Shown: positions 18,609-24,813, counted from the stretch's first letter. The stretch: 64,000 nt of DNA from a virus (IMGVR_UViG_3300026078_000024:1-64000); one strand, 5' to 3'. Notes: generated by a model from the sequence alone, not told the origin. Numbers and translations are program-made.

Positions 18609-18745
18609 TACCCCCGGCCGGATTCGAACCGGCGCGGTCACGGCGGAATGCCGAGACGATCCCGGCTGCCGTGCCATGGGAGGGGCCTGGCGTTCCTCTC
18701 CCGTCCCGTTGTTAGGCGGCGCTCTGACCACTGAGCTACGGGGGC
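18609..18745 (-). ncRNA. 137-nt tRNA-shaped RNA: canonical acceptor, D and T arms, with an ~86-nt structured domain replacing the anticodon/variable arms
   Basis: GCCCCCG TA GCTC AGTGGTCA GAGC G [86 nt] GCCGG TTCGAAT CCGGC CGGGGGT A. Confidence 0.75.
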
Positions 18746-22017: not shown

Positions 22018-22263
22018 TCATGATCCGGCCCCCAGGGAGAACCGGGGCGTGTACGTCGCCTTCGCGGAGTTGTACCCGCGTTCCCATCCGTCGTTCCATT
22101 CGGCGCTCTCGACCACCCGGAGCAGCTTGATCGCGTCCTCGTAGGACTCACCCGCGTCGTGCAGGACCGAGATGATGAAGTCCCGGGCGGCCTCCCGGTC
22201 CTCCTTGGACGGCGCCTCTGCCGCGCGGTAGTTCTTGATCGCTTGCATTGCCTTGGCGTTCAT
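22018..22263 (-). CDS. Hypothetical protein
   Basis: Preceded by the repeated start cassette CACAGGAGCCGATCATG. Confidence 0.65.
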   Translation of the reverse strand: MNAKAMQAIKNYRAAEAPSKEDREAARDFIISVLHDAGESYEDAIKLLRVVESAEWNDGWERGYNSAKATYTPRFSLGAGS

Positions 22264-22677: not shown

Positions 22678-22857
22678 TCACGTGAGGTTGAAGCGCTTGA
22701 CGCTGGTGAGTTGCTGGCGCTCCGAGAAGGTCAACTCTGATTCGCGCTGGCCGGAACCCTCGGCCTGGACGACGGCCTCGACGGTCTGTCCGTCGACCCC
22801 GAGACGGGTGAGGGTGTCGGTGAGGCGTCGACTGAAGTCGTTGCTGCGAGTGCTCAT
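22678..22857 (-). CDS. Hypothetical protein
   Basis: Preceded by the start cassette. Confidence 0.6.
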   Translation of the reverse strand: MSTRSNDFSRRLTDTLTRLGVDGQTVEAVVQAEGSGQRESELTFSERQQLTSVKRFNLT

Positions 22858-23004
22858 GATCGGCTCCTGTGTCCGTATCTGCGGGTGGGTGATGATGCCA
22901 GCCACGCGGCCCGACTCGAACAGGGGCCGTACTCAAACGTGGACCAGATCAATGGCAACGCGCGCATCCTCGAACGGGCCGGAACCCGTTCTCCGCTGTA
23001 GCGC

Positions 23005-23077
23005 GTGGCTGGCATCATCAGGACCGGGGCACCACCCCCGGCCGACGGCAGGCCCTCCCGGGCGGCCGTTTCGCCAT
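23005..23077 (-). ncRNA. Type II hammerhead ribozyme, copy A (predicted GUC cleavage between 23044 and 23043)
   Basis: UGGC GAAA CGGC..GCCG UC^ GGCCGGGG GUGGUG CCCCGGUC CUGAUGA U GCCA GCCAC: full core, three stems, loop I GUGGU pairs with the 3' tail GCCAC. Confidence 0.85.
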
Positions 23078-23079
23078 GA

Positions 23080-23283
23080 TCATTCGTGCCACACCATGTA
23101 GATCAACATGGGCCGCTCCGCCCCGGGGCGGAACACGCTCGCCATGTAAAACGCCCGGTCCCACAGGCGGCGGACGACGTATCCGCCTCCTTCGGAACCG
23201 TCGATGATGCCGTCCGCAAGCGCCGGGTCGATCTCGCGGATCTCGCCGGTCCGGACCACGGTTTCCGTCACGGTTGCGTTCAT
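23080..23283 (-). CDS. Small hypothetical protein between the two hammerheads
   Basis: RBS GGAGGAG plus GATCATG; stop immediately precedes hammerhead A. Confidence 0.7.
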   Translation of the reverse strand: MNATVTETVVRTGEIREIDPALADGIIDGSEGGGYVVRRLWDRAFYMASVFRPGAERPMLIYMVWHE

Positions 23284-23342
23284 GATCGTCTCCTCCACTG
23301 ATGATCCGTGGCCACGGCCCCGAAGGGCCGGACCAAAGATGA

Positions 23343-23579
23343 TCAGAAGTTCTTGCTCACCAGGCGCCACGAGTTGCGGTGGATCGCCAGGGCCGCCGTG
23401 TTCTCCGCGAACTGCCGGTCGTCCGTCTCGACCTTGATCAGTTCGTCGGTCTTACCGGCGACCAGGTGGAAGATCTCGACGGTGAAGATCTCTGCGGTGA
23501 GGGTGCCGTGCTCGTCGATGTCCTCGCGGCCCTGTTCGGTGAGACCCTCGTAGTACAGGTTCAGGTCGTAGTCGTTCAT
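23343..23579 (-). CDS. Small acidic hypothetical protein between the two hammerheads
   Basis: Start cassette directly follows hammerhead B. Confidence 0.7.
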   Translation of the reverse strand: MNDYDLNLYYEGLTEQGREDIDEHGTLTAEIFTVEIFHLVAGKTDELIKVETDDRQFAENTAALAIHRNSWRLVSKNF

Positions 23580-23606
23580 GATCGGCTCCTGTGTCCGTAT
23601 CGGTTC

Positions 23607-23677
23607 GGCTGGCATCATCAGGACCGGGGCACCACCCCCGGTCGACGGCAGGCCCTCCCGGGCGGCCGTTTCGCCGT
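23607..23677 (-). ncRNA. Type II hammerhead ribozyme, copy B (predicted GUC cleavage between 23644 and 23643)
   Basis: CGGC GAAA CGGC..GCCG UC^ GACCGGGG GUGGUG CCCCGGUC CUGAUGA U GCC; two substitutions relative to copy A. Confidence 0.8.
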
Positions 23678-23679
23678 GA

Positions 23680-23877
23680 TCATTCGTCGTAGTCGCCCGT
23701 CATGGCCCCGACCCACTCGGTGGCGTCCATGCCGTCCAGGGTGGGGAACCCGTCATCGTTCACGAAGTCGAGCGTCGTGAGCTGGATACCGGCGTCGGCC
23801 GCCTTGGTGATCAATGCGTACACCTTGGCCTGGAACTCGGGGGTTTCGTTCTCGATGTGAAACACGGTGTGCGCCAT
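23680..23877 (-). CDS. Small hypothetical protein
   Basis: RBS GAAAGG, GATCATG; stop immediately precedes hammerhead B. Confidence 0.65.
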   Translation of the reverse strand: MAHTVFHIENETPEFQAKVYALITKAADAGIQLTTLDFVNDDGFPTLDGMDATEWVGAMTGDYDE

Positions 23878-24041: not shown

Positions 24042-24230
24042 TCAGACCGCCTTGAATTCGATCATGTCTGCGTTCCGGTGGGTCTCACGGATCTTGCGGA
24101 GTAGCGCATCGGCCGCCCTCTGCTCGGACGACGCTCGGACCGTGGCGACCCTGCGCCGGACATCTCCGGGGGCCCATTCGGGGTCGGGGCGGTAGTCGAG
24201 GGTTACGCGGTAGTTGAACTGGATTCGCAT
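24042..24230 (-). CDS. First ORF of the early operon, hypothetical
   Basis: Preceded by the start cassette. Confidence 0.6.
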   Translation of the reverse strand: MRIQFNYRVTLDYRPDPEWAPGDVRRRVATVRASSEQRAADALLRKIRETHRNADMIEFKAV

Positions 24231-24317
24231 GATCGGCTCCTGTGTCCGTCTCGTGCTCGTGCATGGGGAGATCCACCGGCTTCCCCGTTCGAGATACGGT
24301 CGCGGCCGGTGGATCAG

Positions 24318-24778
24318 TAGCAACGGCGGGGATCGAACCCGCTAGACGCCTCTCGGTCCCCGGTTCCCCCGGGTGTTTATCGTCTCGCTGCCATGTGCGC
24401 CGGGTGTTTAACCGCAGACCCGGCGAAAGCGTTTGGTCCGTCAGTCACGCGATCAACGCGTGCATGTGATGACGGAATGTCGGTCCGATCCGCCGTTTGG
24501 GTTTCCGCCTCCGCCATCTGCCTTGATCTCTCAGCGCCGGTATGGCGGTGGTTTGTGATCAAGACCGTCCGGGTTCGATTCGGTCCGTCCCATTGGATCT
24601 TCCGGGATTTTTGGGGGCCCCCGGTGGGGCCGTCATCCCCGCATTGCAGCTCTTCGATCAGTCTCCCGACGATCAAGGCGGTGGGTTGTCTGCCTTCTTA
24701 GAAGATCACCCGCCGTGGTGGCCGGTGCGACGTCCGGTTTAAGATCACCGGGGCCGATCTTCCGTCGTTCTTTGGTAC
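24318..24778 (-). ncRNA. Putative ~460-nt structured RNA with a pseudoknot and a 3' tRNA-like module (24318-24392)
   Basis: Begins just after a consensus promoter; no RBS-supported ORF; ends GGCAGCG [..] GCGGG TTCGATC CCCGC CGTTGCT A. Confidence 0.65.
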
Positions 24779-24784
24779 ATCTCA

Positions 24785-24813
24785 AACATACGGCCGCTGG
24801 GGGCCCATGTCAA
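24785..24813 (-). promoter_or_regulatory. Strong sigma70/HrdB-type promoter
   Basis: TTGACA-N17-TATGTT, with a relatively AT-rich stretch upstream. Confidence 0.85.

Follow-up and report, generated by a model that had tools for sequence, protein, structure and literature searches.

Two genuine type II hammerhead ribozymes, predicted from their sequence to be self-cleaving, lie on the minus strand of a phage genome at either end of a two-gene unit, and they probably cut an early polycistronic mRNA into separate messages, one of which carries the two genes. The window analyzed here is the 64-kb stretch at the start of a 92,877-bp IMG/VR virus record, for which CheckV gives a completeness of 100%. 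A cmscan over the whole window returned two matches to Rfam RF02276 (Hammerhead_II), both full length (model positions 1-66) and both above the gathering score of 37 bits. Hammerhead B is located at 23603..23676 (minus strand; 52.6 bits, E 5.6e-8) and hammerhead A at 23003..23076 (minus strand; 48.7 bits, E 5.9e-7), the latter having the layout of B shifted by 600 nt. The original prediction had proposed that a repeated sequence folds as a minus-strand hammerhead and had named an Infernal search as the check; that search, now run, bears the proposal out. No third hammerhead was found in the whole 92,877-bp record, and a permissive scan of the window detected no other ribozyme.

The repeat in which the hammerheads reside had been described as a sequence of approximately 80 bp with two mismatches, and a repeat search agreed, delimiting an 81-nt direct repeat with an upstream copy at 23607..23687 and a downstream copy at 23007..23087. 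The copies are 98% identical (2 mismatches) and their starts are 600 nt apart. The upstream copy carries the last two codons and the TGA of the preceding gene. TGA stop codons are found at 23682-23680, before hammerhead B, and at 23082-23080, before hammerhead A, and in both cases the Rfam match begins 3 nt on, within the 2 to 3 nt that had been noted between the stop codon and the start of each copy.

Both copies present the same order of elements along the minus strand, and the structural details given earlier, namely the core, stems I to III, the GUC, and the pseudoknot between loop I and the tail, all proved accurate when read from the sequence. The TGA is followed by UCA and one further nucleotide (C or U), and then by GGC, which forms the 5' strand of stem II (23675-23673 in B), and by G12-A13-A14 (23672-23670 in B). 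Stem III (23669-23645 in B) is composed of the A15.1-U16.1 pair and CGGC/GCCG, an internal loop, and GCCC/GGGC under a GGGA loop. The GUC comes next, its C17 (23644 in B) being followed by the scissile bond, with predicted cuts at 23644/23643 in B and 23044/23043 in A. Stem I (23643-23622 in B) has 8 bp and the loop GUGGUG, and its 1.2-2.2 pair is G.U in A and A-U in B. Downstream of stem I are CUGAUGA (C3-U4-G5-A6-U7-G8-A9; 23621-23615 in B), one extra U between A9 and G10.1 (23614 in B), GCC as the 3' strand of a stem II that comprises the 3 bp GGC/GCC (23613-23611 in B), an A, and the tail (pseudoknot tail at 23609-23605 in B). In copy A, the pseudoknot is formed by five base pairs between GUGGU of loop I and GCCAC of the tail; in copy B, the tail sequence GCCG provides four pairs, of which two are wobble.

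The topology is that of type II hammerheads, with stem II open and stems I and III closed by loops. The published core consensus (PMC3088659) comprises C3 U4 G5 A6 N7 G8 A9, G12 A13 A14, A15.1-U16.1, H17, and paired N10.1-N11.1 and N1.1-N2.1; every core position and the flanking pairs G10.1-C11.1 and G1.1-C2.1 match it in both copies. Neither of the two mismatches that separate the copies does any harm, since one changes G.U to A-U in stem I and the other lies just outside stem II. Single-sequence minimum free energy (MFE) folding of the 81-nt elements did not yield the hammerhead fold, and the z-scores were unremarkable; such a failure is expected with a 3-bp stem II and a pseudoknot, and we did not take the result as evidence.

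We considered whether the two elements might be inactive relics, that is, hammerhead-shaped remnants that no longer cleave. The extra U between A9 and G10.1 could be viewed as a sign of decay, as could the weakness of the copy B pseudoknot. However, the catalytic positions are all intact, the scores are well above the Rfam cut-off, compensatory changes are found in relatives, and the extra U is present in half of the related hammerheads. The latter figure was obtained from 62 distinct type II hammerheads that we parsed from this phage, from its IMG/VR relative L122, from two cultured Streptomyces phages (Celia and Alvy), and from further viral contigs with the same 3' motif; 32 of the 62 carry the extra U. 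It is thus a routine variant and not a defect; the original prediction had been right about its presence. Stem II covaries among the 62 sequences, being GGC/GCC in 50, GCC/GGC in six, UGC/GCA in three, and GAC/GUC in three, and pairing is intact in every one of the 50 stem I and 31 stem III strand variants. The complementarity of loop I to its own tail averaged 4.39, as compared with 3.93 when tails were shuffled, and a value as high was reached in 0 of 2000 shuffles. In a five-sequence alignment confined to the lineage of this phage, 98% of helix cells form standard pairs, but only 32-52% do so when the partners are slid by 1-3 columns. Two double compensatory changes, G-C to C-G and C-G to A-U, were detected in the stem III extension, one-sided changes in the helices all yield wobble pairs, and pairing is kept at every substitution in the alignment. 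That the elements are relics is, in our judgment, extremely improbable.

The hammerheads are located among minus-strand genes that run in the same direction. A promoter-like sequence, TTGACA-17-TATGTT (24785..24813, minus strand), was identified as the candidate operon promoter by a consensus scan, in which its 10/12 matches are not evidence of function, and it is followed by an ORF-poor leader of approximately 550 nt. The order that follows is a (62 aa), b (52 aa), u1, hammerhead B, g1, g2, hammerhead A, a structured spacer of 145 nt, d1, and more genes. The u1 gene (23680..23877, minus strand; GC3 0.91) encodes an acidic protein of 65 aa and ends in a TGA located 3 nt ahead of hammerhead B. 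The bracketed unit consists of two orphan genes, g1 (23343..23579, minus strand; 78 aa, GC3 0.94, with an AGGAG site) followed by g2 (23080..23283, minus strand; 67 aa, GC3 0.87), the latter being also present in the relative L127 and having its TGA 3 nt before hammerhead A. The first gene past hammerhead A, d1 (22678..22857, minus strand; 59 aa), is conserved in L127. GC3 is 0.79-0.94 in all six ORFs, a third-position bias shared with genuine genes of this phage, and Shine-Dalgarno sites accompany most of the six; on these two grounds g1 and g2 look coding. A 22-nt initiation region, ACGGACACAGGAGCCGAUCAUG, is common, in identical or near-identical form, to a, g1, d1, and the gene starting at 22263, and in two of the four cases it comes after a hammerhead. 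The next start codon is 27 nt from hammerhead B. The layout of a joint is therefore stop codon, hammerhead, Shine-Dalgarno site, and start codon, with the hammerheads intergenic and on the same strand as the genes. Searches with u1, g1, g2, and d1 gave no significant Pfam or PHROG family, and protein atlas matches were below a usable score. Neither g1 nor g2 had a tblastn match in 50,697 phage records, and close homologues of g1 amounted to only a handful in 5.8 billion proteins.

The bracketing of two genes of a co-directional early operon leads one to expect a two-gene RNA of approximately 600 nt if both hammerheads cut. In the scheme we favor, each ribozyme would fold during transcription and cut after its GUC, at 23644/23643 and 23044/23043, giving rise to three products: an upstream piece comprising the leader, the two small genes, and u1; a 600-nt g1-g2 message; and a downstream piece with d1 as its first gene. 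The 3' end of an upstream piece would consist of the stem III hairpin followed by C17 with a 2',3'-cyclic phosphate, and the 5' end of a downstream piece would be a G with a 5'-OH, engaged from the outset in the G+C-rich hairpin of stem I (8 bp). It is the type II topology that would leave each product with a hairpin flush with its new end, and since the two halves are joined by the 3-bp stem II only, the products should separate and the cut would be effectively irreversible. The hairpin-capped ends should shield the pieces from exonucleases, so that neighboring cistrons could decay and be translated independently, a step for which we draw on general knowledge of bacterial mRNA decay. Work on the glmS ribozyme (Collins et al. 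2007) reportedly indicates that RNase J1 can be attracted by a 5'-OH end in Firmicutes/Bacillus, and the flush hairpin is therefore probably important. Copy B is expected to cut freely, and copy A would have to compete with an antisense arm described below, so that it may cut partly or only during transcription. The near-identical joints may also mark the points at which related phages exchange small accessory genes.

The virus, which has a G+C content of 65%, has been found repeatedly in rhizosphere and soil metagenomes, and its DNA is present in 22 public runs of these two kinds. Metagenome DNA contigs were observed to end at the 81-nt repeat. Two metatranscriptomes had a word share of 6-7%, but they yielded few RNA contigs at a depth of 2-3 (for example, at 23211-23361 and 24483-24763); neither RNA ends nor junctions appeared among them, and the coverage, which is almost nil, is uninformative on cleavage and on circles. 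Our guess is that the host is an actinomycete. A neighboring 397-aa protein had no relative among 185,579 species genomes, and the sole match to a 25-nt hammerhead pattern, in one Desulfovibrionaceae MAG, is uninformative on the host. A megablast search with the 3-kb region gave no match among cultured phages.

A metagenome scan with the g1 protein uncovered three informative relatives. The first, L126, does not differ from the window. In the second, L127, which is closely similar, the same pair of hammerheads flanks the same two genes, but at a spacing of 540 nt owing to a shorter g1. L128 is more distant, has a single hammerhead directly after its g1 homologue, and lacks u1, hammerhead B, and g2. 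Another phage, L122 (G002), has four hammerheads, which bracket units of 279, 300, and 459 nt; each of the four lies 0-4 nt past a stop codon, and 17-25 nt separate its tail from the following start codon. No hammerhead was found in L121 and L123 (G001 and G003), which share the neighboring 397-aa gene at 55-75% identity, indicating that hammerheads are dispensable. The spacing between adjacent copies in other phages ranges from approximately 70 to 2400 nt, with 382 nt among the values seen. The claim of an exactly 600-nt two-gene unit holds as far as the spacing of 600 and the two coding ORFs are concerned; the weight laid on the number does not, and the spacing of 540 nt in L127, the single copy in L128, and the values of 279, 300, 382, and 459 nt elsewhere argue that 600 is incidental.

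In related phages, the conserved blocks are separated by completely different DNA; this is a fast-changing region of accessory genes. One could ask whether the joints are a mobile or recombination module, spread and homogenized as repeats that serve as crossover points for accessory genes, with cleavage merely tolerated. Such a module would account for the near identity of copies within a genome (98% here, three identical copies in L122, and two in L109) and their difference between genomes, for the inclusion of the stop and last codons of the preceding gene in the repeat, for the patchy numbers of hammerheads in close relatives (0, 0, 4, 2, and 1), and for the fully different gene content between conserved blocks. 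However, the hammerheads are always on the gene strand and always intergenic, just past a stop codon, with none on the other strand, and neither terminal inverted repeats nor target duplications were seen. Furthermore, the cores are invariant and compensatory changes affect all helices and the pseudoknot, which speaks for selection on the RNA fold, something that a DNA recombination site would not need. We therefore consider it improbable that the joints are primarily recombination sites, and retain mRNA processing as the preferred explanation.

How efficiently the processing would take place at copy A is complicated by a 19-nt antisense arm in the spacer (22890..22908, minus strand), which is the exact complement of 23020-23002. 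Its target in hammerhead A extends from the second nucleotide of CUGAUGA through the extra U and the 3' strand of stem II to the pseudoknot tail, so that six of the seven CUGAUGA nucleotides are covered. The arm duplex has a predicted energy of -38.8 kcal/mol and encloses 93 nt with three hairpins. By MFE calculation on the 223-nt intergenic RNA, the fold in which the core is sequestered is favored by 23.8 kcal/mol for copy A, as compared with 3.5 for copy B. No comparable arm was found after any of approximately 75 other hammerheads examined. Because the arm sequesters the core, copy A must either cut within the approximately 110 nt of transcription that precede synthesis of the arm or be partly silenced. 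The original prediction that the phage self-excises a 600-nt two-gene RNA thus stands with respect to the cleavage sites and the bracketing of the genes; with the inactive fold favored by approximately 24 kcal/mol, one cannot take it for granted that the 600-nt piece is released efficiently, and the 3' cut may be partial.

A stronger version of this effect would be that copy B cuts constitutively and copy A is mostly off, or timed by the arm, the main products being a long message with g1, g2, d1, and the genes beyond and a regulated 600-nt fraction. A perfect complement of 19 nt is far beyond chance and unique among the approximately 75 hammerheads, and the stability of the duplex and the size of the preference for the inactive fold are in keeping with such gating. 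In addition, the arm is kept in L127, where one A-to-G change still pairs as G.U, on this strand only. On the other hand, the arm is transcribed approximately 110 nt later than the hammerhead, so a fast ribozyme could cut first; L128 is without the arm yet retains its hammerhead; and the arm could equally act after cleavage, as a 5' stabilizer of the downstream message or an RNase III site for it. We put gating forward tentatively, as a possible but rather unlikely refinement, and take cleavage at both copies into separate messages as the working scheme.

The hammerheads of retrozymes and viroid-like RNAs are of type III (or type I), and the RNAs themselves are non-coding and rod-like or branched, replicate or retrotranspose, and occur as circles. 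The original prediction had suggested, with retrozymes in mind, that the 600-nt RNA may be circularized. In this case the two ends of the g1-g2 RNA would be ligated to each other, either through an RtcB-type ligase of the host or through reversal of the hammerhead reaction, giving a stable and translatable circle. The predicted ends do have the chemistry required for RtcB ligation, a complete hammerhead would be restored by combining the 3' half of B with the 5' half of A, and retrozymes reportedly yield circles from paired hammerheads (PMC4918200). Against this, the rtcB search that had been proposed for the rest of the phage genome was carried out and gave no match to RtcB (PF01139) in the complete phage record. 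The ends would be held by the 3-bp stem II only, and a rebuilt hammerhead would re-cut the circle. The predicted fold of the 600-nt RNA is not rod-like and has no end-joining helix, only local terminal hairpins, with a modest z-score of -2.4, and its two ORFs bear a coding signature, unlike the non-coding circles of retrozymes and viroid-like RNAs. The length of the unit is not conserved (540 nt in L127), L128 has one hammerhead only, and Perreault et al., who searched for circles and splice products from clustered prophage hammerheads, detected neither (PMC3088659). Circularization is thus unsupported, and we regard a circular g1-g2 mRNA as very unlikely. The more elaborate idea that a host RtcB-type ligase makes the g1-g2 RNA into a translatable circle, the amount of which is set by the antisense arm, has in our opinion a minimal chance of being correct, although, if true, it would be the first case of a dsDNA phage using ribozymes to produce a circular mRNA that codes for protein.

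The type II class and its pseudoknot were reported by Perreault et al. in 2011, who described prophages in which several hammerheads flank single genes or short gene blocks (PMC3088659). Three polycistronic RNAs of approximately 2 kb with clustered prophage hammerheads were cleaved in vitro in that study, and one of them, a triple arrangement, was also cleaved in E. coli; the authors proposed processing into operon- or gene-length mRNAs, and also raised the ideas of circles and splicing, neither product of which was detected (PMC3088659). The same pattern was reviewed by De la Peña et al. (2017), who point to nearby ORFs that are small and non-conserved and to a persistent association with phages (PMC6155905), and Olzog et al. 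(2021) demonstrated that three type II hammerheads of Desulfovibrio vulgaris, including two that are approximately 313 nt apart, cleave in vivo (PMC8782182). Since the arrangement was described in 2011 and again in 2017 (PMC3088659, PMC6155905), the original suggestion that it was undescribed is incorrect, and of the self-processing early transcript proposed with it, the processing is likely and the novelty is lost. We conclude that the arrangement has been known for phages since 2011 and that the present locus is a clean but ordinary example of it.

The clustered prophage hammerheads (PMC3088659, PMC6155905) are the closest known counterpart. As in those cases, the phage carries at least two hammerheads that are co-oriented with the genes, intergenic, and flank a few genes; the coding strand, the small non-conserved ORFs, the bracketing of one or few genes of a polycistronic transcript, the predominance of the pseudoknot-bearing type II form, and the proposed role in producing gene-length mRNAs are shared. 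Nothing essential is different, although the copies here are 98% identical, the phage is uncultured, with a 93-kb genome of high G+C content, and an antisense arm downstream of a hammerhead, as at copy A, is unreported for the published cases. With the RF02276 family the two elements share the core, the open stem II, the capped stems I and III, a short stem II, and the pseudoknot of loop I with the 3' tail; they differ in having a bulged U after A9 together with a 3-bp stem II, and a stem III lengthened by a second helix under GGGA. The resemblance to retrozymes and viroid-like RNAs lies in a pair of hammerheads that enclose a few hundred nucleotides and leave ligatable ends (PMC4918200); here, in contrast, the hammerheads are of type II, the unit is a coding segment of the mRNA of a dsDNA phage, and there is no structure that would join the ends. 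Retrozymes have their origin in the type III hammerheads of plants and use small non-coding circRNAs to spread (PMC6155905).

Why phages carry self-cleaving ribozymes is an open question, and Weinberg et al. (2019) consider their biological purpose still unsettled (PMC6765202). The locus is a clean case, in that its two copies are nearly identical, its gene joints are well defined, and variants with a 540-nt spacing, one copy, or none occur naturally. Alone it adds no new principle, and its practical value lies in two leads. One is the natural antisense "off" arm at one of two copies. The other is provided by cultured phages. Among cultured phages, the sequences most similar to copy A (81-84% over 58-73 nt) come from Streptomyces phages, where they are intergenic and unannotated. 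At E<=0.001, Celia has 10 Hammerhead_II matches, 7 of them above the Rfam cut-off, and Alvy has 11, of which 10 are above it. In both phages, which belong to the Arquatrovirinae, all matches are on the gene strand and between annotated genes, bracket units of 1-4 genes, and are unannotated in GenBank. Our literature search found no paper linking hammerheads with actinobacteriophages, the Celia and Alvy arrays included. In Celia, an Ocr-like anti-restriction gene is flanked by two matches below the cut-off (31.3 and 29 bits), which recalls the ardA case of Perreault et al. (PMC3088659). The Celia and Alvy arrays have the same joint layout as the present phage, with many diverse copies in place of two near-identical ones, and these Streptomyces phages offer the same hammerhead subtype in a host that is tractable for genetics and end-specific RNA-seq.

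The core of hammerhead A, the type II hammerhead at 23003-23076 (-), is complementary, with no mismatch, to a 19-nt antisense arm (22890-23020 (-), arm and core together), and the arm can trap the core. The pairing encloses a 93-nt insert with three hairpins, one of which is T-loop-like (GUUCGAGUC). Among the roughly 75 hammerheads compared, only hammerhead A has such an arm. It is retained in L127, a close relative with the same hammerhead pair, where one change preserves pairing as G.U; L128, a more distant relative with one hammerhead, lacks it. A separate observation concerns stem I of copy A: a single contig, X16 (soil metagenome, depth 3), has T in place of C at position 23042, which turns the G.U into an A-U and matches copy B, the second hammerhead at 23603-23676 (-). 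The variant may be genuine, or the assembly may have switched from one repeat to the other.

Between the hammerheads, the spacer separating genes g1 and g2 contains two GAUCAUC blocks that pair, and nested in this larger pairing is a GGCCC-UUCG-GGGCC hairpin (23316-23329 (-)), which is kept in L127. We also observed in g2 a stretch, GGCAUCAUC (23203-23211 (-)), with 9-nt complementarity to the cores of both hammerheads. The structure predicted for the 600-nt g1-g2 product has this stretch base-paired to the core of copy B. The complementarity may be due to chance.

The operon has a promoter-like TTGACA-17-TATGTT site followed 3' by a leader of about 550 nt with few ORFs (site and leader, 24230-24813 (-)). 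The 3' end of the leader is a T-arm-like hairpin, GCGGG-UUCGAUC-CCCGC, with a perfect stem (24342-24326 (-)), and the segment 24306-24439 is conserved at the DNA level in the related contigs L121 and L122. Few metatranscriptome contigs matched the 5-kb stretch with which they were compared, and two of these lie at 24483-24763. Elsewhere, an Rfam tRNA match of 41.2 bits (18609-18745 (-)) has intact acceptor, D and T arms and about 80 additional nucleotides replacing the anticodon region; ARAGORN called no tRNA there.

The related phage contigs L121 and L123 have no hammerhead at any position. They share with the window phage the neighbouring 397-aa phrog_1362 gene (55-75% identity), and their small-gene region, lying between conserved blocks, is wholly dissimilar. 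Hammerhead_II matches were found in two cultured Streptomyces phages, Celia (MN062705.1, 41.3-49.0 kb; 10 matches, 7 above the Rfam cut-off) and Alvy (NC_054669.1, 42.5-51.5 kb; 10 of 11 above it). All of these matches are intergenic, lie on the same strand as the genes and lack annotation. In Celia, the Ocr-like anti-restriction gene (gp73) has a sub-threshold copy on either side.

A 22-nt translation-initiation block, ACGGACACAGGAGCCGATCATG, precedes four genes (the block starts at 24249, 23598, 22876 and 22282, all (-); three exact copies and one with a single mismatch) and within the window is restricted to the hammerhead operon. It also occurs 3' of hammerheads in L127, L128 and L122, a relative with four hammerheads, and we take it to be reminiscent of the 'start-associated sequences' known from some mycobacteriophages.
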